Both the position numbers and the translations under genes were made by a program. Of a DNA stretch of 64,000 nucleotides, positions 3,447 through 32,288 are shown piece by piece. The notes beneath the pieces are model-generated. The model did no database searches. It was not told where the DNA came from and worked only from the letters and a program-made list of their open reading frames with translations. The stretch's first letter is position 1; every line of letters begins with the position of its first letter. The stretch lies in NCBI RefSeq assembly GCF_988242995.1, contig NZ_OZ547043.1. One strand, given 5' to 3'.

Positions 3447-4934
3447 TTATTCCGACACAACTGGCTTTTTTTCACACTTTTGCGACTCGGATCGAGGGTA
3501 TTTCCATAGCCAACGTCCAGTAACCATTCGCCAGTAAAACAGCACGGCCCGCACAGCCCAGTCGGCAAACATTCCCATCCAGACACCAACCACACCCCAG
3601 CCAAGCATGATTCCCAGCACATAACCGACTACAACCCGACAACCCCACATGCTCAACATCGAAACCCACATGGCGTAACGGGCATCACGAGCACCTTTAA
3701 ATCCAGCGGGTAGCACCCATGAGGCGGACCAAATAGGCATAAATAAAGCATTTAGCCAAATCAGAATCACAACGACATGTTTAACCTGTGGATCCTGGGT
3801 GTAAAACGATGCCATAAGCCCGGCAAAGGGAGCCGTTAGCCAGGCGATGGCCGTTAATCCAAGAGTGGACAGCCAGAACACATGCCGCAACTGAATCTCT
3901 GCTTGCGCTATCTGCCCTACCCCCAACCTTCGGCCTGTAATGATCGTAGAAGCAGAGCCGAGCGCACTTCCGGGTAAGTTGATAAGAGCCGCAATTGAAA
4001 ACGCGATAAAATTTCCGGCAATAACACTGGTCCCCATTCCGGCAACGAACATTTGGGTTAATAACCGACCACTGGTAAATAACACTGATTCGACACTCGC
4101 TGGAATACCAATCCCCATGACTTCCCAGATAATGCTAAAATTCAGCGGTTTAAAATAGCTCTTTAACGAAATCCTTAGCGCAGGATTAAAACCTATCGCC
4201 AGCACCCACAAAATTGCAACTGCGCCAATATAACGAGAAATGGTTAAACCCAACCCAGCCCCGACAAATCCCAGTCCCGGCCAGGAGAAAAGGCCGTAAA
4301 TCAATATGCCGCTAATAATAATATTAAGAATATTCAGGCTACCGTTAATCAGTAGCGGTATTTTCGTATTCCCTGCACCACGAAGTGCCCCACTACCAAT
4401 CAAAGTGATGGCAGCTGCTGGATAACTGAGTACCGTCAGCTCCAGATAAGTCAACGCCAGTGCTTTAACTTCTGTCGTGGCATCACCCGCGACGAAATCA
4501 ATAATTTGTTCGCCAAAATGATGAATAAGCGTTGCCAACAGTACGGCAAACAACGTCATGATCACCAATGACTGCCGCGTCGCCACCCTCGCTCGTCGTC
4601 GATCCCGCTTACCGAGACTAAATGCCACAACGACAGTGGTACCAAGATCGATAGCAGCAAAAAAAGCCATAATGACCATATTGAAGCTGTCCGCCAATCC
4701 CACGCCGGCCATCGCATCTTTTCCCAGCCAGCTGACCAGAAAAGTGCTCAGGACACCCATCAACAGGACACAGGCATTCTCCATGAAGATAGGAACAGCA
4801 AGCGGGGTTATCTCGCGCCAGAACAACACTTTGTAGCTCTTGCGTTTAGCGTGCCAGCGAGTGCCGTGAACAACCTGGCGTAAAGCAGAGGAGATATTCA
4901 AAGCCGACCTTAATTGCAGAAAGTGAAACCACAT
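3447..4934 (-). CDS. yeeO: MATE-family efflux transporter (FMN/FAD exporter YeeO)
   Basis: ORF 3447..5087; start chosen at internal Met (MWFHFLQLRS...) giving about 495 aa; multi-pass membrane protein. Confidence 0.8.
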   Translation of the reverse strand: MWFHFLQLRSALNISSALRQVVHGTRWHAKRKSYKVLFWREITPLAVPIFMENACVLLMGVLSTFLVSWLGKDAMAGVGLADSFNMVIMAFFAAIDLGTTVVVAFSLGKRDRRRARVATRQSLVIMTLFAVLLATLIHHFGEQIIDFVAGDATTEVKALALTYLELTVLSYPAAAITLIGSGALRGAGNTKIPLLINGSLNILNIIISGILIYGLFSWPGLGFVGAGLGLTISRYIGAVAILWVLAIGFNPALRISLKSYFKPLNFSIIWEVMGIGIPASVESVLFTSGRLLTQMFVAGMGTSVIAGNFIAFSIAALINLPGSALGSASTIITGRRLGVGQIAQAEIQLRHVFWLSTLGLTAIAWLTAPFAGLMASFYTQDPQVKHVVVILIWLNALFMPIWSASWVLPAGFKGARDARYAMWVSMLSMWGCRVVVGYVLGIMLGWGVVGVWMGMFADWAVRAVLFYWRMVTGRWLWKYPRSESQKCEKKPVVSE

Positions 4935-5094
4935 TTCAAATAATGAGGGAGAATCAGCAAAGCTGCAAAGATTTTCGCCAACAAATTGTCTGCAAATGCA
5001 ACAAACTGTTGATAGAAACGGCAAACAGTTGGGGAATTTAAAAATCGGGTTTGACAAAAGATTTTTCGCCGTTAAGATGTGCCTCAACAGCGAT

Positions 5095-5170
5095 TCCTCT
5101 GTAGTTCAGTCGGTAGAACGGCGGACTGTTAATCCGTATGTCACTGGTTCGAGTCCAGTCAGAGGAGCCA
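5095..5170 (+). tRNA. asnU: tRNA-Asn
   Basis: TCCTCTGTAGTTCAGTCGGTAGAACGGCGGACTGTTAATCCGTATGTCACTGGTTCGAGTCCAGTCAGAGGAGCCA, GTT anticodon loop. Confidence 0.95.
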
Positions 5171-5180
5171 AATTTCTGAA

Positions 5181-5207
5181 AAGCCCGCTTTTATAGCGGG
5201 CTTTTTG
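5181..5207 (+). terminator. rho-independent terminator after asnU
   Basis: aagcccgct ... agcgggctt hairpin followed by TTTTT. Confidence 0.6.
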
Positions 5208-6158
5208 CTATATCTGATAATCAATTTCCTCTTCACTGTTTTCCATCACCTGCCGCTTGATATCCTCAACTGAAAGTCCTGCATTACAAAGTTCCAGAAA
5301 GCGCCAGACATAGTTACGCTGAAGTTGCCCTCGCTTGAGTCCCAACCAGACAGTATTAGCATCGAAAAGATGCCGCGTATCCAGGCGGATTAAATTCTTT
5401 TCCTCTTGTTCACCGCTGGATTGTTCGGCAACTAATCCGATCCCCAGCCCAAGAGCAACATAGGTTTTAATGACATCAGAATCCTGCGCACTTAATACAA
5501 TATCTGCCAGCAAACCTTTGCGGGCAAATGCGTCATCAATACGTGAGCGCCCCGTAATCCCCTGTCGGTAAGTGATTAACGGCCACTTCGCTATTGATTC
5601 CAGCGTCAATGGTGTAATTTGCGTCAAGGGATGATCGAGTGGAACAAGCAAACTATGGTGCCAACGAAACCACGGGAAGGCGACGAGCTGCGGGTCATTA
5701 CTCAAACGCTCGCTGGCGATACCAATATCAGCTTCGCCATTTTGCAACAACGTCGCAATTTCCTGTGGCGTCCCCTGGATTAGCTCGAGCCGAACCTCCG
5801 GGAAAAGTTCGCGAAAAGCTTTAATGACCCCTGGCAAGCTATAACGCGCCTGAGTATGCGTCGTTGCAATAGTGAGAACGCCAGACGTATCGTTGGTAAA
5901 CAGGTCTGCAAGCCGACGAACATTACTGGCTTCATTCAGAATACGTTCTGCAATGACCAGTAATGCTTTGCCCGGTTCAGTCATGCCCAGCAGTCGCTTA
6001 CCTCGTCGAACAAATATTTCGATGCCAAGTTCATCCTCCAGTTCCCGAATATGACGGCTGACGCCTGACTGTGAGGTAAAAAGCATATTCGCAACCTCTG
6101 TCAGGTTGTAATCCTGACGTGCAGCTTCGCGGATTATCTTTAGTTGTTGGAAATTCAC
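5208..6158 (-). CDS. cbl: LysR-family regulator Cbl (CysB-like)
   Basis: 316 aa; N-terminal LysR HTH MNFQQLKIIREAARQDYNLTEVANMLFTSQSGVSRHIRELE. Confidence 0.9.
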   Translation of the reverse strand: MNFQQLKIIREAARQDYNLTEVANMLFTSQSGVSRHIRELEDELGIEIFVRRGKRLLGMTEPGKALLVIAERILNEASNVRRLADLFTNDTSGVLTIATTHTQARYSLPGVIKAFRELFPEVRLELIQGTPQEIATLLQNGEADIGIASERLSNDPQLVAFPWFRWHHSLLVPLDHPLTQITPLTLESIAKWPLITYRQGITGRSRIDDAFARKGLLADIVLSAQDSDVIKTYVALGLGIGLVAEQSSGEQEEKNLIRLDTRHLFDANTVWLGLKRGQLQRNYVWRFLELCNAGLSVEDIKRQVMENSEEEIDYQI

Positions 6159-6259
6159 GGTAAACTCCGGGCAGTTCAGATATCCCGTTATTGTTAAAGT
6201 CTAACGCCCGGCATAACAAATAATAAAAACCCGCATCTTATTCCATCCCGATATAACGC

Positions 6260-7177
6260 TTAGCTCACCAATTGCCACTGCCTTTTTTCCATCACTGGAG
6301 AACTAATCACTGACATTAACAACTCTTTCACTGCCTGTGCCTGTGGCGATAAGTTCGCTCTGGCGGGTAAATTTAATGACAAAGAGAGACTCATTGAAGG
6401 CGTGGTAATGCGTGACATCCACCCATTTACTGCGCCACATAACGAACGCGCGGCCGATTCGGGTAATACTGCAACGCCCATGCCGCTGGCAATCGCTGCG
6501 GTAAGCGTGGCAATAGACTCAATTTCACCAATAACTTTTGCCGTGAGTCGCCGTAGGGAAAAAGCCTCATCAACACGAAGTCTAACAGCGCTGTAATCAC
6601 TGGGGAGAAAGAGGTTCATTTTCGCAATAGCATTCACATCAACGCTTTGCCCCGGGCAATCTTGAGTTCCTACCAGAAAAAGATCTTCTTTCAGCAAAGC
6701 CTGACTGGATACACCAGCCACAGGGGAATGCTCATAAATCACCGCCATATCGAGTTGGTGATTTATCAATTTTTCGTTAAGCACTGCACCACTATTTTCA
6801 TGAAGATAGATAACGATCTCCGGAAATTCAGCGCGAACCGCCTGTAATAAGGGCATGGTGATGGATGACGCAGCGGTTCCTGGTGCAAAGCCAATCGAGA
6901 CTTGCCCCGATAATGCCTGACCAACGTTATGCACCGCCAGTTGGGCCTGTTCACACTGACGTAAAATGGCCCGCGCATGGGTATAGAGAATTTTTCCGGC
7001 GTCTGTTGGCGTAACGCCCCGCTTTGTACGGATCAAAAGTTGTTGATTTAACTCACCTTCCAGTGTGGCAACCTGCTGGCTGAGCGCTGGTTGTGCGATA
7101 TGCAATACTTCAGCAGCCTGGGTCAGGCTACCAATATCTACAATTTTTACGAAGTATTTCAGGCGTCTGAAGTTCAT
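6260..7177 (-). CDS. nac: LysR-family nitrogen assimilation regulator Nac
   Basis: ORF 6260..7207; start placed at MNFRRLKYFVKIVDIGSLTQAAEVLHIAQPALSQQV (305 aa). Confidence 0.9.
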   Translation of the reverse strand: MNFRRLKYFVKIVDIGSLTQAAEVLHIAQPALSQQVATLEGELNQQLLIRTKRGVTPTDAGKILYTHARAILRQCEQAQLAVHNVGQALSGQVSIGFAPGTAASSITMPLLQAVRAEFPEIVIYLHENSGAVLNEKLINHQLDMAVIYEHSPVAGVSSQALLKEDLFLVGTQDCPGQSVDVNAIAKMNLFLPSDYSAVRLRVDEAFSLRRLTAKVIGEIESIATLTAAIASGMGVAVLPESAARSLCGAVNGWMSRITTPSMSLSLSLNLPARANLSPQAQAVKELLMSVISSPVMEKRQWQLVS

Positions 7178-7503
7178 GTTGCCTCCGGTTTTTAAGAATC
7201 GGCCCAAGTGCCGCCATTACTTACAACCAGAAAGCAAGATGCTTGCCAGTTCTATTTTGGCGTTGATGCGCAAGCTAACCAACTGTCAAATAAAAGATTA
7301 TGATAGATTCGTCATTGGCCCTTTTTATCAGCAGTCGCATTCACCTGCCCTATAAAAGGAGGGTATGCACCACGATGGTTCATTACACAATAAGATTGAA
7401 AGCTCACCACTTTGTTGAAATTGGCAGCAAACAAACAAAAAAATACATTTCACCCTTTGACATCACCATGCACTGCCATTAATATGCGCCCCGTTCACAC
7501 GAT

Positions 7504-7579
7504 TCCTCTGTAGTTCAGTCGGTAGAACGGCGGACTGTTAATCCGTATGTCACTGGTTCGAGTCCAGTCAGAGGAGCCA
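7504..7579 (+). tRNA. asnV: tRNA-Asn
   Basis: 76 nt identical to asnU copy. Confidence 0.95.
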
Positions 7580-7587
7580 AATTCAAA

Positions 7588-7615
7588 AAAAGCCTGCTTT
7601 CGAGCAGGCTTTTTA
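7588..7615 (+). terminator. rho-independent terminator after asnV
   Basis: aaagcctgct / agcaggcttt hairpin followed by T-run. Confidence 0.6.
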
Positions 7616-7635
7616 CTTTCTAATTACCAACGCTC

Positions 7636-8568
7636 TTAAAACATCTGTCTTGAACCAGAACTAATTTGCACAGGCATTCCCGATCGACGTTGCAACGCAG
7701 CATTTGCGCGATTTACATCAACTTCTTGCCCGTTGATAAACGCCCGCAAAGATGGGGTTACCGGCAATGGCACTTTTCGGTCAGACTCATATTCTGCACG
7801 ATTGCGCGACAGCGGCTCATGAACTTCCAGCCACTTTGAACCATCCGGTTCCGTTGTGTATTTCACTGGCTGATCAATAATTTGTACACGAGTGCCTACA
7901 GGAACATTATCAAACAGATATTTGATATCGTCATTGCGCAGACGAATACAGCCCTGACTTACCCGGAGCCCAATACCAAAATTGGCATTGGTACCGTGGA
8001 TGGCATACAACCTGCCAATATAAATCGCGTACAGCCCCATGGGGTTATCGGGCCCCGCAGGAACAAATGCGGGCAAACTCTCCCCTCGTTTCGCATATTC
8101 GCGCCGGGTGTTCGGCGTTGGCGTCCAGGTTGGTGCTTCTTGTTTACGTTCAACGGTAGTCACCCAGTTACGCGGGGTTTCTCGCCCAGCCTGGCCGATA
8201 CCAATAGGAAAGACTTCCACTGTGTTACTGTCTGGCGGATAGTAATAAAGACGCATTTCAGCGACGTTAACCACAATCCCTTTACGAACAGTGGCGGGCA
8301 AAATCAGTTGCTGCGGAATGGTGAGTTGTGAGCCAGGCTTCGGCAAAAAAACATCAGCGCCCGGATTCGCTTCCAGCATATTACTTAACCCTTGCCCGTA
8401 TTGTGCGGCAAAAGTCTCCAGCGGCTGAGTATTGTGATCAGGAACAGTTACAGTAAGCGACTGCCCCACTAAACGGCTACCCTCTGGAGGTAATGGATAA
8501 GTTACCGCCAGGCTATTTTGGCTGGCAAAAAGCAGAGCAAATGAGCAAAGAATATTTACACGACGCAT
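7636..8568 (-). CDS. ldtA: L,D-transpeptidase (YkuD/ErfK family)
   Basis: 310 aa with signal peptide ([21 protein letters not shown]) and YkuD-type catalytic region (HGT...GC). Confidence 0.85.
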
Positions 8569-8632
8569 CATGTCCCTTTCCTAAGTCGCGAATACTATCC
8601 GATAAGTATAGCTTTTATCAGACTTTTCGTTT

Positions 8633-9712
8633 TTAGCTGTTCAAATCAGAAGTCGTATTCCCCGGTAGAACAATATTACTGGCAGCAAGTTCGCCCATGT
8701 TGTTGTATATCGCACAAGCAGCTTCGATGATGGGCATCGCCAGAGCTGCACCACTCCCCTCACCTAAACGCATATCCATATTGAGATAAGGCTCCAGCCC
8801 CAAATGCGAGAGCGCTATACGCGCGCCTTTTTCTACCGACAAGTGAGAAGGAATGAGATACGGTTTGATTGCAGGAGACATCTGGCAGGCTGCGAGCGCA
8901 GCAGCATAAGAAAGAAATCCATCCAGCAACACGGGTAAACCGCAGGAAGCAGCACCTAACATCACTCCAGCTATTCCGACCAAATCAAATCCACCCACTT
9001 TTGCCAGGACATCAATACCATCCTGAGGATTTGGTTGATTCAACGTAATCGCCCGACGCACAACATCAATTTTATTAGCCAGTTTATCTGTCGGCAGGTT
9101 TGCGCCAATCCCAACCACTTCTTCAGGATCCCGGCCAGTGATTGTGCTGACTATTGCTGCTGCCGGTGTCGTGTTTGCCATCCCCAGTTCACCTACACCA
9201 AACAGCGTGACACCGTTTTTTGCCAGCTCCTGCGTATAACATATGACGTCCAAAAGCAACTTTTCAGCCTGACGGCGACTCATTGCCGGAGCTGAAGCAA
9301 TATTGCCGCTACCTCGTGCGACACGCATGTTGATAAGCCTGGGGATAGGCTCAGCAGTATCAATACCAACATCAATTACGTGGACGTTAGCGCCCGCTTG
9401 TTCTGCCAGCACACACACGCCGGTTGTTCCACGGGTCATATTTTCAGCCTGTATGGCTGTCACTTCTTTTGGAGAAATAGCGACCCCTTCCTCCCAGACG
9501 CCGTGATCGGCACACATAACCAGTACCGCTTTTTTGCCCACATGCGGTATGCCATTCAACCCCGGCATTCCTGCCAGTTGTATGGCAAGCGCCTCCAGCT
9601 TTCCCAGGCTACCAACAGGTTTGAGTAACCCGTCAATATGCCGTTGTGCACGCGACATAGCGGCAGAATCGATGGCTGGGATCGTATTCAGTAAATCGGC
9701 AAGTATTTGCAT
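8633..9712 (-). CDS. cobT: nicotinate-nucleotide--dimethylbenzimidazole phosphoribosyltransferase
   Basis: 359 aa, [32 protein letters not shown]... Confidence 0.9.
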
Positions 9713-23288: not shown

Positions 23289-24902
23289 TTATTTATTGGT
23301 GAGTACTACGTTCCATGGCAGGAGTTCGCCAACTCGGTTGGAAGGCCATTCCGGCAGTACGCTCAGAATATGGCGCAGATACGCTTCCGGATCGATACCG
23401 TTCAGACGGCAGGTGCCGATCAGCCCGTACAGCAGTGCACCACGCTCGCCGCCGTGATCGCTACCGAAGAACACGTAATTTTTCTTTCCGAGACAGACTG
23501 CACGAAGCGCTCTTTCCGCTGTGTTATTGTCCGCCTCCGCCAGACCGTCATCACAGAAGTTGCACAACGCAACCCAGTGCTTCCTGATATACCGGAACGC
23601 ATCTCTCAGACGGCATTTTTTCGATAACGTGTGTTCTTTCTCCTGCATCAGCTTATACAGGGAAGTCAGTAGCGGTTTACTCTGCATTTGCCTGACCGCC
23701 AGGCGTTCAGACACCGGCAACCCGCGTATTTCGTGCTCAATGGCGTACAGTTCACCGATTAGTTTCAGTGCTTCTTCCGCCGTCGCGCTTTTGGTACTGA
23801 TATATACATCGTGGATTTTGCGCCGTGCATGAGCCCAGCATCCTGCTTCCGTCAACGCGCCGCCTTCACGTTCGGCACTGAACAGCCGATCGTAACCTGC
23901 GAACGCATCTGCCTGCAGGATACCCCGGAAGGGACGAAGGTGTTGCTCCGGATGTTTACCCTGATGGTCCGGTGAGTAGGCGAACCAGACCGCCGGAGGT
24001 TCTGGCGAACCGGCATTTCGGTCATCCCGGACATACGTCCAGATATATCCTGTTTTCGCCTTCTTCCTGCCCGGTGCCAGTACTTTTACTGGTGTGTCAT
24101 CAGTGTGAACCTTGCGGGTGTTCATCACATAACTGTACAGGGCATCATTCAGCGGAGTCATTAACTGGCAGCACGCATCAACCCAGTTGGAGAGTAAGGC
24201 ACGGCTCAGTTCGACACCCTGGCGGGCAAAGATTTCACTCTGACGATACAGTGGCAGATGTTCGCAGTATTTTCCCGTTAACACGCGGGCAAGTAACTCC
24301 GGGCCCGCGATACCACGCTCTATCGGACGGGATGGTGCCGGTGCTTCAACGATGCAGTCACATTTTGTACAGGCTTTTTTTACCCGTTCTGTGCGGATCA
24401 CTTTCAGGGCGCTGCTCACCAGTTCCAGTTGTTCTGCACTGACTTCCCCCAGATAATCCAGCTCACCGCCACACTCCGGGCAACAGCTTTCTTCAGGCTC
24501 CAGGCGGTTTATTTCGCGGGGCAGAAGCTCCGGTAACGGACGACGATGGCGTGACTGTCGCAACTGGCGGGGAACCTGCGGGTCATCCTCTCGCCCACTG
24601 TAACGATCGCTGTCCTGTTCGCGTTGCTTCAGCAGGGCCTCAGCCTGTTCAACTTCACGACGCAGTTTTTCAGAACGGGTACCGAACAGCATCCGGCGCA
24701 GTTTTTCTATCTGAGCCCGCAGATGTTCTATTTCCCGTTCATCTTCTTCGATCTTTTCTTCGGCACGTGCCAGCACAGAACGCAGGAAGGCCTCCGTCTC
24801 TTCAACCAGACTCAGTTGTTGGTCTTTCTGACGGAGGGCTTCAGCCTGCTCAGAGAGCAACCTTTCCAGCTCTGCGATGCGAATGAGGTATTTCTGACTC
24901 AT
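23289..24902 (-). CDS. IS66-family transposase TnpC
   Basis: 537 aa; N-terminal coiled coil, CPECGG zinc motif, DDE region; C-terminus LYGLIGTCRLNGIDPEAYLRHILSVLPEWPSNRVGELLPWNVVLTNK. Confidence 0.85.
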   Translation of the reverse strand: MSQKYLIRIAELERLLSEQAEALRQKDQQLSLVEETEAFLRSVLARAEEKIEEDEREIEHLRAQIEKLRRMLFGTRSEKLRREVEQAEALLKQREQDSDRYSGREDDPQVPRQLRQSRHRRPLPELLPREINRLEPEESCCPECGGELDYLGEVSAEQLELVSSALKVIRTERVKKACTKCDCIVEAPAPSRPIERGIAGPELLARVLTGKYCEHLPLYRQSEIFARQGVELSRALLSNWVDACCQLMTPLNDALYSYVMNTRKVHTDDTPVKVLAPGRKKAKTGYIWTYVRDDRNAGSPEPPAVWFAYSPDHQGKHPEQHLRPFRGILQADAFAGYDRLFSAEREGGALTEAGCWAHARRKIHDVYISTKSATAEEALKLIGELYAIEHEIRGLPVSERLAVRQMQSKPLLTSLYKLMQEKEHTLSKKCRLRDAFRYIRKHWVALCNFCDDGLAEADNNTAERALRAVCLGKKNYVFFGSDHGGERGALLYGLIGTCRLNGIDPEAYLRHILSVLPEWPSNRVGELLPWNVVLTNK

Positions 24903-25798: not shown

Positions 25799-26560
25799 CG
25801 CGTGTGGGAAATCATTTTTTCTGGCGTTGACAGAACGCCTTACGGGCTGCTACTTACCCGGTGTCCCGCAATACAGCCTTAGTGTTCCGTTATCGGGGAT
25901 CCGGACGCACCGCAACAACCGGGGAAGTATTTCTGGTTAGAGCTGTGTCAAGAGGGATTTCTCAGCCCCTCACTCACCGGCTCAGTCTCAGGGCAGAAGC
26001 ATTAATACACTCAGTTCATGTCTTATACAGGAATGGGCATAGGGGGAGCTGGCGTGTCACTGCTGATTTTACGCATCAGCGTTCATGTATCTGCACTCTG
26101 ATACAGAATGCTTCACAGCGCTCTGTTACCGGAGAGATTTACTCTCTTAGGTTATTCTGGCAAATCCTTTACGTTACTCTCTGATGACTTCTTATATTTA
26201 TAATACCAATCAGACAACCTTATCCCATCGGTGATATCAGTCTCCTGCTCGCCAGGAACGGGCTGACTCACTGTAACCACCTCCGAAAACAACTCTGCAA
26301 TTATCAGAACGCCTGCTTCTCTCCCTGTCCTCACGAAAACTATCCCCTCTTTATCGCGCGTGCGTGCGGAAGCATCTTTTCGCAACACCCCCCTCCGGGA
26401 TTCCGCTACGGCTCTGCCATCGCAATCCCCCCGTTTATCTCCGGACAGCCACATTCCCGATTATTTTTTACGTTTCTCCCCGGTTGTTATGCCGGTGAAG
26501 GTGGCGCGCTGTTTTCATGACCACACCGGCTGGTTTAACAACATCCGGAGGAACATTCTC

Positions 26561-26767
26561 ATGGCTACCCCAGTTTCGCTGATGGATGACCAGATGGTCG
26601 ACATGGCGTTTATCACTCAACTGACCGGCCTAACCGATAAGTGGTTTGACAAACTCATCAAAGATGGGGGCTTTCCTGCGCCCATCAAAATGGGGCGCAG
26701 CTCCCGCTGGCTGAAAAGTGAAGTGGAAGCCTGGCTGCAGGCGCGTATTGCACAGTCCCGTCCGTAA
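26561..26767 (+). CDS. AlpA-family prophage transcriptional regulator
   Basis: 68 aa from MATPVSLMDDQMVDMAFITQLTGLTDKWFDKLIKDGGFPAPIKMGRSSRWLKSEVEAWL; GGAGG RBS 10 nt upstream. Confidence 0.65.
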   Translation: MATPVSLMDDQMVDMAFITQLTGLTDKWFDKLIKDGGFPAPIKMGRSSRWLKSEVEAWLQARIAQSRP

Positions 26768-26860
26768 TTTTTAACCACTAACCCTTCGCCCACAGCAGAC
26801 GCAATCTCCGGCCTGCCGGCGGCGCTCTGCTGCCTGTTATCCCCCGTGAGGAATATGAAA

Positions 26861-27463
26861 ATGAAACAACAGTATCAGACCCGTTACGAGCTGCTCCATG
26901 AAAACTACCAGAAATGGCTGACCGGCTTCACCCGGCACGCCGTATCATGGGGCGTGTGTCATCCGAATATCTACTATTTCCATAATCTGACGCCCGGGTG
27001 GGTGTCATTCAATGGCGAAAAACCGGAGATTGCCATCGTTCCCCAGAGTCTGCACCGGCTGATTTATGGTCCGGACAAACGGAGCTCCCCGTCCCTAGAT
27101 GATGATCTGGTGGTGAATTTATGCACCAGCGAACACCTGCTGGTTCATCATCCGATGCTGGAAGGGATCCTGCTGTCTGAATGTGAACGCCTGAAGCAAC
27201 ATTCTCTGGCAAACAAACTGATCAGCCTCTTCCGTCAGTTTGGCGGCACGGAGTTACGTCTCAAACTGGTCTGGCTCTGCTGGCTTGACTTAATGACCGG
27301 AAACAGCCTTGACGACTGGACGAAAAACCTGAAACACAAATCAGAAAAAGATCTGGAGCAATGGATCATTGCACGTCAGGGTCAGAGTGAACCACTGACA
27401 AATCTGATGGATCAGTACGTGCTTATGGCATACCGTACATCGGTTGATGCCGCTCACAGTTGA
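26861..27463 (+). CDS. hypothetical protein
   Basis: About 200 aa ORF downstream of alpA-like gene with GAGGAA RBS; no recognisable motif. Confidence 0.4.
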   Translation: MKQQYQTRYELLHENYQKWLTGFTRHAVSWGVCHPNIYYFHNLTPGWVSFNGEKPEIAIVPQSLHRLIYGPDKRSSPSLDDDLVVNLCTSEHLLVHHPMLEGILLSECERLKQHSLANKLISLFRQFGGTELRLKLVWLCWLDLMTGNSLDDWTKNLKHKSEKDLEQWIIARQGQSEPLTNLMDQYVLMAYRTSVDAAHS

Positions 27464-28372
27464 TGTCTGAGAACCACAGGGCTGGCAGCAGAAAACCAGC
27501 CCTGTGGTAAAATACAGTAATAGCGGCGTACATCAGGCACGCCGCTCACTCGTCCACAGATCATATACGTCATTATACTGCGCGATAACGGAGGGCTTCA
27601 GCACCCGGTCATTTCTGAGCGGGTATGAATACCATTGATGATGCGAAGCAGCCACGGGCAGAAACGTTCTTCACAACCAGGTGCCTCCATCTTCACTGCA
27701 GTCTGAATGTGCCGGCTTGTTATCCACCAGAAATGGTATGCTCCGGTACATGCATACCCCGGAGACTATAAACGCACTGAATCATAGCCTCCCACCTCAG
27801 CAGGAGGCAGTCAGCTTTCAGGCGGAAAAACGTTGCAGTTAAAGATCGTGAGAATCGCTGTTTCGTTGCATAGCAACCCGAACAGTTGTAGTGAAACATT
27901 TTACCTGCATCAGCACATGGTCAGGCGCCGTCTGTATGGCGTGGAATACTGATGTTTCGGCTGATGGCAAGCCTCATTCTCTGTGGAAACAGGGGCGCGC
28001 ATTAGCTTCTCAACCAGAGAGTGTCACAAAGACAAATATTGCTGAAAATCGCATTCATCGTTCAGGCGTGAATGCCCGGAGACAAAAGCCGCTGTCCACA
28101 CAGTCCCCCTCTGACCTGAACAAAAAGCATACACACAACAGGCTCACCTGACCCCGAAAAACCATAACTTCAGCAATACCAGTGACACCAGCACGTTACC
28201 TCAGTGCCACATCTTCAGACCGCGATCAATCTGAAATGTGACTATCGGGGCAATATCCCTGCTTTGTGGTACACGATAACCAGAAAACATCCCCTGAACC
28301 GCCAGCCAGAAAGACTGGCCACAAAAGGGGTAAGCTGAAATCGTTTATGGATTACATCGACATATGCCTGGC

Positions 28373-28380
28373 AGAGAATG
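28373..28380. repeat. target-site duplication (AGAGAATG) of IS66 copy 2, left
   Basis: Identical octamer at 30817..30824. Confidence 0.8.
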
Positions 28381-28421
28381 GTAAGCGTGCAGTGAGAACC
28401 GTATTGACGAAGTGAAGCTGG

Positions 28422-29990
28422 TCAGGCAGGCAGAGTAACCCGCCACGGGAGCAGAGCACCCACCCGGTTCACAGGCCAGTCGGCGATGACATCAAGTACA
28501 TGATGCAGATAGCGTTCCGGATCCACGCCGTTTAATTTGCACGTCCCGATAAGACTGTACAGTGACGCACCGCGCTCACCACCATGATCCGAGCCGAAGA
28601 ACAGCCAGTTTTTTCTCCCCAGACTGACCAGTCGTAGGGCGTTTTCGGCAATGTTATTATCCACCTCCACCCAGCCATCTTCTGCATAGCGGGTCAGCGC
28701 CGGCCACTGGTTCAGCGCATACCCGAACGCCTTCGCCAGTTCTGAGTGCCTTGAGAGGGTTTTCTGTTTCTCCCGCAGCCACCCCTCCAGTGACGCCAGC
28801 AGCGGCAGCACTTTTTGGTGCCGGACTGCCTGCCGTTCCTCTGCTCTTTTACCTCTGAGCTCCGACTCGATGGCATACAGCTCGCCGATCCGTTTCAGCG
28901 CCTCCTCCGTCAGGGCTGACGGGGTACGGACGTGAACATCGTGGATTTTTCGGCGGGCATGGGCCCAGCACGTGGCTTCCTTTATATGGCCGTCGCGGTA
29001 GAGCTCGTTGAACCCGGCGTAGGCATCAGCCTGCAGTACGCCACTGAAGCCTGCAAGATGGGTCTGAGGGTGGATACCTTTTCTGTCCGGGCTGTAAGCG
29101 AACCACACTGCGGGGGCCAGCGCTGATCCGGCGTTGCGGTCGTCTCGAACGTACGTCCATAAGCGCCCGGTCTTCGTCTTCTTATTGCCCGGCAACAGCA
29201 CCGGGACAGGCATATCGTCAGCATGGAGTTTGCCGTCGGTCAGGACATAGTGCTGAAGGGCTTCATCCAGCGGTGCCAGCAGACGACAACACGCATCCAC
29301 CCAGCCCGACAGTACAGAACGACTCAACACTACACCCTGGCGGGCATAGATCTCCGACTGGCGATACAGCGGTATGTGCTCTGCATACTTTGAGGTCAGC
29401 ACTCGGGCCAGCAGCCCCGGTCCGGCGATCCCCCGTTCGATGGGGCGCGAAGGAGCCGGGGCCTGAACGATGCGATCGCACCGACGGCAGGCATGCTTTT
29501 CACGGACTGTCCGGATAACCCGGAAGGCGCTGCGCATCAGCTCCAGCTGTTCGGCGGCATCCTCACCCAGGTAACTCAGCGAACCACCGCACTCCGGGCA
29601 ACACGGCTCAGTCGGCAGCAGCCGCTTCTCATCCCGTGGGAGTGACTCAGGGAACGGTTTGCGGGTGCGGGTCTGACGCAGCGGGCGCTGCACTGCCGGG
29701 TCATCCACCCGGCCGGTCAGCGTATCGCTTTCCTGCTGCAGCAGGTTCAGGTCAGCTTCCATTTGCGCGATACGGCGGGATACCTTTTCGGAACGACTGC
29801 CGAAGTTCATCCGGCGCAGCTTATCCAGTTGCGCCTGCAGATGGTCTATTTCGCGTTCCCGGTTGCTCAGCTTTTCCTGCAGGGCGTGGATCAACGCTTC
29901 CTGTTCGGCCAGGCGCTGTTTCAGCAGAAGGATGTCGTCAGAAGAGGTGTCGTTCATAAGCCTGTATTTTCCAGGCTTATTCTGCGACAA
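28422..29990 (-). CDS. IS66-family transposase TnpC
   Basis: 522 aa; same architecture as 23289..24902 but clearly diverged in sequence. Confidence 0.85.
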   Translation of the reverse strand: MSQNKPGKYRLMNDTSSDDILLLKQRLAEQEALIHALQEKLSNREREIDHLQAQLDKLRRMNFGSRSEKVSRRIAQMEADLNLLQQESDTLTGRVDDPAVQRPLRQTRTRKPFPESLPRDEKRLLPTEPCCPECGGSLSYLGEDAAEQLELMRSAFRVIRTVREKHACRRCDRIVQAPAPSRPIERGIAGPGLLARVLTSKYAEHIPLYRQSEIYARQGVVLSRSVLSGWVDACCRLLAPLDEALQHYVLTDGKLHADDMPVPVLLPGNKKTKTGRLWTYVRDDRNAGSALAPAVWFAYSPDRKGIHPQTHLAGFSGVLQADAYAGFNELYRDGHIKEATCWAHARRKIHDVHVRTPSALTEEALKRIGELYAIESELRGKRAEERQAVRHQKVLPLLASLEGWLREKQKTLSRHSELAKAFGYALNQWPALTRYAEDGWVEVDNNIAENALRLVSLGRKNWLFFGSDHGGERGASLYSLIGTCKLNGVDPERYLHHVLDVIADWPVNRVGALLPWRVTLPA

Positions 29991-30005
29991 CCAGGATAAA
30001 GAGCG

Positions 30006-30353
30006 CTACAACATGGTCAGGGATGTCAGTAACCGCTTTGGCTGTCGCCAGTCGATACCTTCCATCAGCATCGCCAGTTGCGCCGGCGTCAGGAACACTT
30101 TGCCATCGCGGGCTGAGGGCCAGGCGAAGCGACCACGTTCTAGTCGCTTTGTCAGCAGGCACAGACCATCGCCGGTGGACCAGAGCAGTTTTACCTGACT
30201 GCCGCTGCGTCCCCGGAAGATGAAGACGTGGCCGGACATCGGGTCATCTTTCAGCGCGGTCTGCACCTTTGCGGCGAGGCCATTGAAGCCGTTGCGCATA
30301 TCGGTGATACCGGCAACCAGCCAGATTTTTGTGCCTGCGGGAAGATTTATCAT
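30006..30353 (-). CDS. IS66 Orf2 (TnpB)
   Basis: 115 aa MINLPAGTKIWLVAGITDMRNGFNGLAAKV... Confidence 0.85.
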   Translation of the reverse strand: MINLPAGTKIWLVAGITDMRNGFNGLAAKVQTALKDDPMSGHVFIFRGRSGSQVKLLWSTGDGLCLLTKRLERGRFAWPSARDGKVFLTPAQLAMLMEGIDWRQPKRLLTSLTML

Positions 30354-30733
30354 ACAGGCCCCCGCATCAGTTCGCGCAGGACAGTGCTCATGAGTTCAGC
30401 AGAGGGATGAGTCAGTGTTATTTCTCCTCCCCGACATTTTATGTGGCAGGTAGCGGGAGGAGAGCAGGATGGTAGTTCGAAGGTTGGGAGAGAAGAGCCC
30501 GCCTGAAGCTGCACGGGTATCAGGGCAGGAAGCGACGATGAGTTTTTTCGGGGCCGACAGACCCGCCCTTCACGCTGCCAGAGCCTTATCCATTTAAAGA
30601 GCAGGTTATCATTGACGTCATGTTTCCGGGCCAGTGCGGCAATACTGCCTTCTTCTTCAAGAGCCAGCCTGACCAGTTCCATTTTGAATTCAGGGGAATA
30701 GTGTTTCCGGGGAAGTCTTTCTTTAGCGCGCAT
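30350..30733 (-). CDS. IS66 Orf1 (TnpA, HTH)
   Basis: 127 aa; overlaps orf2 by 4 nt. Confidence 0.8.
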   Translation of the reverse strand: MRAKERLPRKHYSPEFKMELVRLALEEEGSIAALARKHDVNDNLLFKWIRLWQREGRVCRPRKNSSSLPALIPVQLQAGSSLPTFELPSCSPPATCHIKCRGGEITLTHPSAELMSTVLRELMRGPV

Positions 30734-30816
30734 GAGGTGTCCACCTGCAAAATAAGTGGGTGCTTAAGTTACAGGATCCTGGATTCGGGACCAGACGGTA
30801 CTCAGACGACGCTTAC

Positions 30817-30824
30817 AGAGAATG
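30817..30824. repeat. target-site duplication (AGAGAATG) of IS66 copy 2, right
   Basis: Identical octamer at 28373..28380. Confidence 0.8.
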
Positions 30825-32288
30825 TCCGGAATGACGAGGTTATCTTTGCGGAGATTAAGGCAATGGTATACGGGCCGACGTTCCATGCCGCGTTACTACA
30901 TTCAGCCCGGACGTAAAATGCGCCCGTCAAAAAGAACGGTTCGCTTCGAAACTCAGCCAGGATACCACCTCTCCGCCACACCCGGGAAGAAGTTGATATG
31001 GTGGTTGCCGGACAACAGCACTCCTGGATTGACTGCTGCATCACTCAACCACGCTGAATATCAAAGGAGAGCGTTACCGGTTAAAAGAGAAACGTAAAGC
31101 TGTGGTGATGACCCAAAACGCAACGCCTGTCAGTGAGGATGAAATGGTGAAAAGCGGACAGCATCAGTAACGGAAGTATCTTAGCGGGTACGAAAATGGC
31201 AGGATCGTGACATTGACAGAATATCTCCTGATCATCCTGAATGACTGCAGTTGCTGTAGAAAAGTAAGCTGTCTCCACCCACGGCACCACTTAACAGGCA
31301 TTCCGTAACTTCCCCCAGACTTACTATGACGCATTATCGGTGCACTGAAAACGGGAGAGTGCGCTTAAAACCGCAGACCGCATGCGGGTGTTACTGCATG
31401 ACAGTCTGGCCGTATTGTGAGATGTCGGCAGGAACCGATGTCCGCGCAGGGGGGAACTTCCTGCAGTACCTAACGCTTCAAATGGTATTAACCGTAGGGT
31501 GTTGTTGGTTCCGGATCGCGGAAATGGGAGCACAGGTCTGCTACGGGGTGTACCTCTGACAGTATATCCGGCTCGCTCATCTGACAGCCTCTCTCCCGGA
31601 AAAGACCAAAAATGAGATCGTCTCCTCAACAGCAGAGAAGAGGTCTTGACAGACAGGCTATATTGCATACGATTTATGAAGAAAAAGACAGCAAATATGG
31701 AGGTTATAGCGGAGAATACCCTACGAAATTCCTATGAAAAACGATTGAAAAAAATATCAAATTCGATTCGTTTTTATATGCTTTTTGGGAGCGTGGCGAT
31801 GACGAACTGTTGCATGTGCAGAGGAGAATGCACCCGGAAGCACCAGAATCATCCAGAAAGGCAGAACGATTACGCATCAAACCAGGAGACAGCAATATCA
31901 AGGTAATATACTGATTTAAAATGAATTTACAGCAATACGTGAAAACATTTTTTACTTAAAGGAGACAGATGCGCTGAAGAGAGTGCAGGTATTTTTATAT
32001 AAAAATGAGAAGTTTACGGGATGTATATCCGGCACACTATGACCGGAGAATATCAGTCAAGCTTAAAAAGACAATAAATACAGTGAGTTAAATACACAGA
32101 GAAAACGTAGTATCAGAGGGTACATCTTACAACAGAGACTGAATTTCCGGTTTTTCATAACCGGCGCATTCCGGAAAGTGCAGGCGGCCCGGAGGTTTTC
32201 TGACGCCACTACCTGGTAGATTGTTCTGTACATCATGTACGGAGGTTTTTGTTTGCTTTTTTAAAATCTGCAAATGTGAGAAAAGCAG

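Follow-up and report, generated by a model that had tools for sequence, protein, structure and literature searches.

Elements of the IS21 family (prototype IS21, and also IS100) are composed of an istA transposase gene and an istB gene encoding an AAA+ helper, and nested insertions and IS-rich "graveyard" regions are known from genomic islands and plasmids. Cryptic integrative islands of the CP4-44 and CP4-57 type carry AlpA, a YeeP-like GTPase, YeeS/YeeT and CbeA/CbtA. The locus described here, at positions 27470-32288 of the window (the whole 64,000-nucleotide stretch that was analysed), brings these systems together. It is located in a CP4-44-like Escherichia coli genomic island (AlpA ... 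YeeP-type GTPase ... CbtA/CbeA), where it separates two transcription units, and the flanking gene order, as annotated by RefSeq in O104:H4, matches this island type. Unlike in the CP4-44/CP4-57 type, alpA and the GTPase gene here enclose no cargo other than two hypothetical genes, encoding proteins of 205 and 387 amino acids, and IS debris. As in the graveyard regions, one IS lies within the remnant of another, and IS150, IS100, IS66 and IS3-family elements have inserted here independently in different strains. A literature search on CP4-44, yeeP and IS21 returned nothing relevant to the stretch. Very probably, this 2.4-kb ORF-poor stretch is decaying, non-essential island DNA surrounding a dead IS21-like remnant, which was later split by an IS66-family element.

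The splitting element is a 2436-bp insertion sequence on the minus strand at 28381..30816, recognized by its Pfam domains, its ends and the duplication that flanks it. Its termini (GTAAGCG... from 28381 and ...CGCTTAC up to 30816) and the 8-bp target-site duplication AGAGAATG, with a left copy at 28373..28380 and a right copy at 30817..30824, were confirmed, in agreement with the boundaries first given for it. The element encodes tnpA (30350-30733), tnpB (30006-30353) and tnpC (28422-29990), and the minus strand yielded the Pfam domains HTH_Tnp_1 (2.9e-13), TnpB_IS66 (1.7e-38) and DDE_Tnp_IS66 (1.3e-103), in addition to zf-IS66, LZ_Tnp_IS66 and the IS66 C-terminal element. The tnpA/tnpB/tnpC domains, the terminal inverted repeats and the 8-bp duplication all place it in the IS66 family, with which it shares the same three ORFs, domains and GTAAGCG/CGCTTAC ends; no unusual feature was seen, and the PGAP label gives the family name only. 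The same junction is present in 273 of the 5426 complete E. coli genomes, O104:H4 and O145:H28 among them.

Joining the flanks without the IS66 element reconstructs an empty site of 2375 bp. E. coli Z1323CEC0013 carries this IS-free stretch uninterrupted and without a single difference (100% identity), and many other genomes match it at 99.8%. In all, some ~1,700-2,100 E. coli genomes possess the locus. Within it, PGAP annotates only two features, both as pseudogenes: an "IS21 family transposase", corresponding to istA', and an "AAA family ATPase", corresponding to 'istB. The original prediction, of a degraded gene or a non-coding regulatory or sRNA region interrupted by the IS, had named an uninterrupted, untranscribed intergenic match in related genomes as the outcome that would speak against it; the first half of that outcome is what the BLAST comparison of the reconstructed site returned, namely an uninterrupted, gene-less stretch. 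The continuous frame that had been expected across the joined flanks, ...KSFMDYIDICLAENVRNDEVIFAEIKAMVYGPTFHAALLHSART*, was obtained, and the portion MDYIDICLAENVRNDEVIF is the IstA of an IS21-like element, residues ~40-86.

Alignment to an intact IS21 element on plasmid pF1267-1 (L006), which served as the reference, delimited an IS21-like remnant of 486 bp on the plus strand, at 28289..28380 and 30825..31218. The first part of istA' (28289..28380) covers IstA residues ~40-70 and is 87% identical at the nucleotide level to istA nt 117-208, and the second part (30825..31016, identified by blastn to the intact element and by blastx) continues to IstA residue ~134. Over istA nt 117-400 (286 nt) nucleotide identity is 87%, and over the istB 3' end it is 89%. 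A blastx comparison of the istA' piece to IstA (1e-20) spans residues 41-134, the HTH-2 region; the DDE domain is deleted. In the second part, the istA' frame is shifted by one 2-bp deletion and one 2-bp insertion. Internally, 1412 bp of IS21 have been deleted at a CAAC microhomology, fusing istA' to 'istB, of which the last 52 codons (IstB residues 214-265) and the stop codon are left at 31013..31170. This piece was recognized by Pfam PF01695 IstB_IS21 (E 3.3e-6; 27.2 bits, cutoff 24.1), by NCBIfam NF006616 (E 2.9e-8) and by blastx (79% identity, 9e-26). When set against the termini of the reference element, the right end falls at 31171..31218, with a terminal inverted repeat (...CGTGACATTGACA) that reads CGTGGCGTTGACA in intact IS21. 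The repeat ends in TTGACA at 31213-31218, a feature shared with the IS21 family; this hexamer is the counterpart of the outward-directed -35 box that has been described for the right end of IS21.

The locus thus contains sequence homologous to both istA and istB, and its frameshifts, stop codon and 1412-bp deletion leave it without intact frames or the capacity for transposition. What also sets the remnant apart from a functional IS21 is the loss of the left end together with the first 116 nt of istA; nor does it have a definable flanking duplication. The left terminal repeat is absent, as a search for IS21 homology found none above shuffle background to the left of ~28289, and this edge appears to be a truncation point and not an IS end. 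Because the frame belongs to a frameshifted, internally deleted IS21-like remnant, the gene that the IS66 element interrupted is a dead transposase rather than a host gene. The prediction of an interrupted, degraded gene was therefore right as to the degradation, whereas the gene itself proved to be an istA'/'istB remnant that accounts for 486 of the 2375 bp.

Comparison with related islands shows how long the remnant has been in place. In a diverged island that is ~83% identical (L009), the IS21 sequence is truncated at the same point and carries a different internal deletion, while another variant (L008) has the same deletion as the island studied here. The remnant is therefore old and has been eroding independently in each lineage. 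It was found in three diverged island lineages; its persistence across lineages that differ by 15-20% is long for useless bacterial DNA. Further insertions were located in other strains, with IS150 at 27980, IS100 at two sites (28325 and 30866), and members of the IS3 family at 30940 and, in the form of a truncation, at 28215. Counting IS66, at least six independent IS events (IS150, IS100 twice, IS66 and two of the IS3 family) have thus affected the loci examined, indicating that the stretch tolerates disruption.

The anatomy reflects a sequence of events. An IS21-like element lost its 5' side up to a point within istA, acquired frameshifts and lost 1412 bp, so that istB survives only as its 3' end, followed by the right repeat. 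An IS66-family element subsequently transposed into the remnant, generating the 8-bp duplication and very probably disrupting no functional part. The other ~1.9 kb is spacer, presumably without a function of its own, in which the plausible functional parts are the hairpins of the upstream unit and an AT-rich zone that may serve as promoter or leader of the 387-aa gene.

Both flanks were described at the outset as containing only short, overlapping ORFs that look poorly coding, and the 2375 bp of joined sequence indeed contain no credible ORF. The longest start-to-stop ORF encodes 114 aa (31324..31668, minus strand), and the longest stop-free run, of 135 aa, is no longer than those in 500 shuffles (116 +/- 23), so that the flanks are indistinguishable from non-coding sequence. 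Six-frame translations matched no Pfam or NCBIfam family besides IstB. HMMER was also run exhaustively against 1.84 billion proteins with all stop-free segments of >=54 aa as queries, which gave 42 matches, all <=190 aa. The 13 sequences that we inspected were rejected as homologues: they derive from this very DNA through spurious calls, in which TGA was translated as Trp (implying code-4 gene calls) or the frame hops, as happens in error-prone assemblies. In five variants of the right spacer, candidate ORFs were neither intact nor conserved. The 114-aa ORF is broken by 19-bp, 1-bp and 39-bp indels, and a 76-aa ORF (31676-31906) considered as a small protein was discarded, as it is frameshifted in variant L011, differs from L008 by substitutions that are nearly all amino-acid-changing, and has no Shine-Dalgarno sequence. 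A non-IS protein-coding gene, with a frame conserved among variants and with homologues elsewhere, was not found in the joined flanks.

The left flank (27470..28288) is a non-coding spacer, as judged by variant comparison and family scans, and begins with two tandem GC-rich hairpins (27473..27546; repeat search and folding) directly 3' of the stop codon of the 205-aa ORF (27461-27463). Hairpin 1 has a perfect 13-bp stem (27473-27508) and hairpin 2 a stem of ~8 bp (~27522-27546); they form the top windows of the sliding folding scan (z -4.1; strand-wise -3.7 on the plus and -5.4 on the minus strand). Their likely role is to terminate the alpA/205-aa transcription unit or to stabilize its 3' end; as neither has a clean U-tract, the terminator role is one that we infer. 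Apart from the 13-bp hairpin, a repeat search detected no repeats or MITE-like structure in the spacers. The segment 27470-27770 is common to other AlpA-GTPase islands at ~83-87% identity, 27568-27770 matches the equivalent position of others at ~70%, and homology to L005 and L009 stops at 27770/27771. The remainder, 27771-28288, is particular to the present island variant. No other match to the left spacer was found in E. coli genomes and plasmids, and the indels that separate its variants have lengths that are not multiples of three. On the other side of the remnant, the right spacer (31219..31619) has a normal GC content and is non-coding, with broken ORFs and no family matches; its variants differ by a deletion of 19 bp and by insertions of 1 bp and 39 bp. 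Plasmid matches to the two spacers comprised just a few mislabelled chromosomal contigs. The idea that 37-kb "plasmid" records represent excised islands was dropped, since the record examined (NZ_CP070137.1) is a linear contig with a resistance region.

Between the right spacer and the 387-aa gene, and adjoining the upstream side of that gene, lies an AT-rich block (31620..32288, plus strand; GC 33-44%), which its composition and consensus scans mark as a candidate promoter or leader. The suggestion of a regulatory or sRNA region gained no support from general searches: an Rfam cmscan of 26000-34000 on both strands returned no match at E<=1, promoter- and terminator-like sites were no more frequent than in shuffles, and outside the upstream hairpins structure signals were weak, with sliding-window z values of only -2 to -3.6. 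One window within the block (31920-32065) folds somewhat better than shuffles, with z -3.6 in the scan and -2.8 when refolded. From 31620 to 32170 the block is ~98% identical to the diverged variant L008, with flanks at ~85%, a degree of conservation that might stem from selection for a non-coding role rather than from recombination.

An alternative is that this 650-bp block, perhaps together with DNA just upstream, controls the 387-aa gene, be it as a long leader, as a regulatory region or as an sRNA that has escaped annotation, in which case not all of the ORF-poor DNA would be junk. The high identity to L008 and the modest structure just described would fit such a function, as would the presence at 31646-31673 of TTGACA-16-TACGAT, which resembles a promoter, a hairpin followed by a T-run at 32224-32262, terminator-like and 27-65 nt ahead of the start codon of the 387-aa gene, and a GC content typical of silenced or regulated promoters acquired horizontally. 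However, the Rfam result and the shuffle counts apply to the block as well, 32120-32265 folds with a z of just -1.5, and 6-bp and 9-bp indels occur among the variants, which are too alike for covariation to be informative. In L008 the block is retained even though deletion has removed nearly all of the 387-aa gene, so that recent recombination fits better than selection. Nor was the block found beyond E. coli-type sequences in searches that included GTDB species representatives and plasmids; among the same species representatives, scans for a 387-aa peptide pattern and for 20-mers gave a single chance 20-mer match. We regard control of the 387-aa gene by this block as unlikely, while still giving it some weight. 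The more specific proposal that CP4-44-type islands encode in this block a cis-regulatory leader or a small RNA not described before, perhaps with co-option of the IS21 right end, seems to us improbable.

It is similarly doubtful that the parts outside the IS21 remnant descend from ordinary protein-coding cargo genes of the island, one or several, degraded past easy recognition. In related islands, the cargo found between the 205-aa gene and the GTPase gene varies, 27771-28288 and 31219-31619 have a gene-like GC content (~48-56%), and an SD-like AAGGAG is followed by ATG-CGC-TGA at 31958-31977. Against this, the open frames do not exceed the lengths seen in shuffled sequence, the six-frame family scans and the exhaustive protein search gave no match and only same-DNA artefacts, respectively, and searches of 5426 E. 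coli genomes and 72,556 plasmids found no paralogous DNA. Finally, the right terminal repeat of IS21 is documented to contain a -35 box that can pair with a neighbouring -10 box to make a promoter (PMC10122671). The remnant has retained this repeat with an intact TTGACA (31213-31218) and is present in three diverged island lineages; the survival of its right end there would be accounted for if the repeat had been co-opted as the -35 of a hybrid promoter that drives transcription into the spacer downstream of it and into the 387-aa gene. This is very improbable given that the best -10 hexamer 16-18 bp downstream is a poor one (CTGAAT, 3/6), that the sole scan match there is a weak GTGACA-17-GATCAT (9/12), that the remnant is conserved no better than its neighbours (~83-86% vs L008), and that the 387-aa gene lies 1.07 kb away beyond terminator-like hairpins.

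Read as decaying island DNA around a dead IS21-like element, the stretch is ordinary mobile-element debris of little importance, and part of it is already known, as RefSeq marks the IS21-family pseudogenes. The continuous frame that had drawn attention to it is now explained as IstA. For the islands themselves, the six or more independent IS insertions in the loci examined offer possible lineage markers, and the truncated IS21 persists across diverged island lineages.

As the original prediction described, an IS66-family element occupies 28381..30816. It is 2436 bp long, carries its ORFs on the minus strand, and has the ends GTAAGCG.../...CGCTTAC and the 8-bp direct repeat AGAGAATG on either side (28373-28380 and 30817-30824). 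Pfam searches detected HTH_Tnp_1, TnpB_IS66 and DDE_Tnp_IS66 in its three ORFs, as expected, the last together with zf-IS66, LZ_Tnp_IS66 and the IS66 C-terminal element. We reconstructed the empty site by joining both flanks without the IS and one repeat copy (2375 bp), and the proposed check by nucleotide search (megablast, 5426 complete E. coli genomes) recovered uninterrupted copies, with 100% identity in Z1323CEC0013 and 99.8% in many others. Within the stretch, PGAP marks nothing in these genomes but two pseudogenes, one called "IS21 family transposase" (or "hypothetical protein, frameshifted") and the other "AAA family ATPase, missing N-terminus". Exactly the junction seen here between IS66 and flank occurs in 273 genomes, O104:H4 outbreak strains and O145:H28 among them, and the layout is also the same in the RefSeq annotation of O104:H4 2011C-3493. 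Separately, the minus strand at 23289-24902 encodes an intact 537-aa IS66-family TnpC (Pfam DDE_Tnp_IS66, E 1.5e-95), part of a second IS66-family element that reaches about 25600 and is ~65% identical to the 28381..30816 element. Its orthologous pseudogene in the 2011C-3493 RefSeq record is tagged 'ISL3 family transposase', apparently in error.

Alignment to the intact IS21 (istA and istB) of plasmid pF1267-1 (L006) revealed what lies under the insertion. Window 28289-28380 plus 30825-31016 aligned with istA nt 117-400 (87% identity), and 31013-31201 with istB's final ~158 nt plus the sequence beyond (89% identity). These blocks meet at a CAAC microhomology, and 1412 bp of the IS21-like element have therefore been deleted. 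Beyond the BLAST block the right terminal repeat is retained, ending at 31218 as ...CGTGACATTGACA, compared with ...CGTGGCGTTGACA in intact IS21, while no IS21 homology was found left of about 28289, indicating that the left edge is a truncation. Blastx of the remnant matched IstA residues 41-134 (E 1e-20; the frame is broken by frameshifts and a stop) and IstB residues 214-265 (E 9e-26, 79% identity), the IstB piece also being detected independently by Pfam and NCBIfam. The short continuous frame predicted across the joined flanks was indeed present (...MDYIDICLAENVRNDEVIFAEIKAM...), and the alignments and blastx matches together identify it as IstA sequence from the segment that separates HTH-1 from HTH-2 in the definition of PMC10122671. 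The original interpretation is thus partly supported: the IS interrupted a degraded gene, and that gene is a dead transposase. The IS21 remnant accounts for only 486 of the 2375 bp.

Comparison of island variants indicated that the remnant is old. In L009, another AlpA-GTPase island that is ~83% identical to the window in the shared left arm, the IS21 remnant is truncated on the left at the same point but lacks another internal segment (IS21 positions 444-1874, versus 686-2097 in the window), whereas the diverged variant L008 has the window's internal deletion and further loss on the left. IS21 insertion and truncation therefore predate the split of the island lineages, and erosion continued independently afterwards. 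Other strains carry IS150 at 27980, IS100 at 28325, an IS3-family element at 30940 and an IS3-family truncation at 28215, and Nissle 1917 and the 30348_2#316 isolate carry IS100 at 30866. With the window's IS66, at least six independent IS events from four IS families have struck this 2.4-kb stretch in different strains, evidence that it tolerates disruption.

The description of the flanks as ORF-poor is confirmed: the longest start-to-stop ORF in the joined 2375 bp is 114 aa, and the longest stop-free run, 135 aa, lies within what shuffles give (116 ± 23). Six-frame scans against Pfam and NCBIfam yielded no protein family besides IstB, and Rfam yielded no RNA family for the sRNA alternative of the original prediction. 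An exhaustive HMMER search with all stop-free segments of ≥54 aa against 1.84 billion representative proteins returned 42 matches, all ≤190 aa; the 13 inspected were rejected as homologues, being spurious ORFs from the same DNA. Several have Trp in place of this sequence's TGA, implying that genetic code 4 was used to call them, and others switch between frames, a pattern expected of error-prone assemblies. "Proteins" of 174-190 aa in public collections (P0001-P0003) derive from window 31421-31906 with Trp where the DNA has TGA; they are artefacts of code 4 gene calling on contigs of short length, and anyone searching these collections for homologues should be wary of them.

In DNA searches the spacers were confined to this island type on E. 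coli chromosomes and a handful of plasmid-labelled records (E. coli and one from Klebsiella), and were not found in GTDB species representatives. The one plasmid-labelled record examined, NZ_CP070137.1, is a linear chromosomal contig. At ~3992-8890 this 37-kb E. coli contig runs from the left spacer through IS66 tnpB into IS26 and a multi-gene region with tet(B); IS26 has added further to the locus in this strain.

Within the left spacer (27470-28288), homology with the AlpA-GTPase islands L005 and L009 spans alpA and the 205-aa gene and ends at 27770, the aligned part containing many indels with lengths not divisible by three. The sole strongly structured elements of the stretch are two GC-rich tandem hairpins directly after the 205-aa stop codon, one with a 13-bp perfect stem (27473-27508) and one with a stem of about 8 bp (about 27522-27546), with folding z of -4.1, -3.7 and -5.4 on full-length folds and -7 in a sliding-window scan. 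Since a clean U-tract is absent, they may at best act as a non-canonical terminator or 3'-end stabiliser. The sequence at 27473-27546 differs in other island variants, where it is also shorter, and the first hairpin may thus be a small palindromic insertion.

In the right spacer, GC content is normal over 31219-31619 and low (33-44%) over the AT-rich part, 31620-32288. Relative to the window, five variants show a 19-bp deletion, insertions of 1 and 39 bp, and repeat changes of 6 and 9 bp. Of six candidate ORFs checked across them, three are disrupted in one variant or more, the two longest among these. A 76-aa ORF was rejected as a gene, being frameshifted in the variant L011 and carrying almost exclusively amino-acid-changing substitutions in L008; two minus-strand frames are open in all variants, with solely protein-altering differences in L008. 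The AT-rich block could be read as a leader or regulatory element, given a TTGACA-16-TACGAT that resembles a promoter (31646-31673) and a hairpin with T-run (32224-32262) shortly before the 387-aa gene, but this seems improbable: promoter-like and terminator-like sites were not in excess over shuffles, and folds were unremarkable (z -1.5 and -2.8). The block is ~98% identical to L008, with flanks at ~85%, and because L008 has lost nearly the entire 387-aa gene, recent recombination explains this identity better than selection. Within this conserved block, a consensus Shine-Dalgarno AAGGAG followed after 5 nt by the two-codon mini-ORF ATG-CGC-TGA (31958-31977) is identical in every variant examined, and could reflect chance or a gene-start relic. 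Co-option as a promoter of the IS21 right terminal repeat, in which an outward -35 box is known (PMC10122671), is very unlikely, because the intact TTGACA of the remnant is followed by no convincing -10.

RefSeq annotation places the matching O104:H4 region in a CP4-44-type island, in which an inovirus-Gp2-like gene, AlpA and the 205-aa hypothetical precede the stretch, and the 387-aa hypothetical, a YeeP-like GTPase, a dynamin-family protein, an RdcB-family protein, a patatin-like phospholipase, an antirestriction protein, YeeS, YeeT and CbeA/CbtA follow it. Neither flanking hypothetical had Pfam or PADLOC matches. The GTPase-to-phospholipase cargo (33497-38991, the dynamin-family protein being 798 aa) gave weak PADLOC matches only (LeoBC 1e-5, phospholipase effector 1e-4) and is a possible defence-like module.

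The IS21 pieces already stand as pseudogenes in RefSeq. An old IS21-like element has been truncated, internally deleted and left eroding, and IS66 later transposed into it. The arrangement is an ordinary one: an IS66 within an old IS21 remnant, in the non-coding spacer of a cryptic island.
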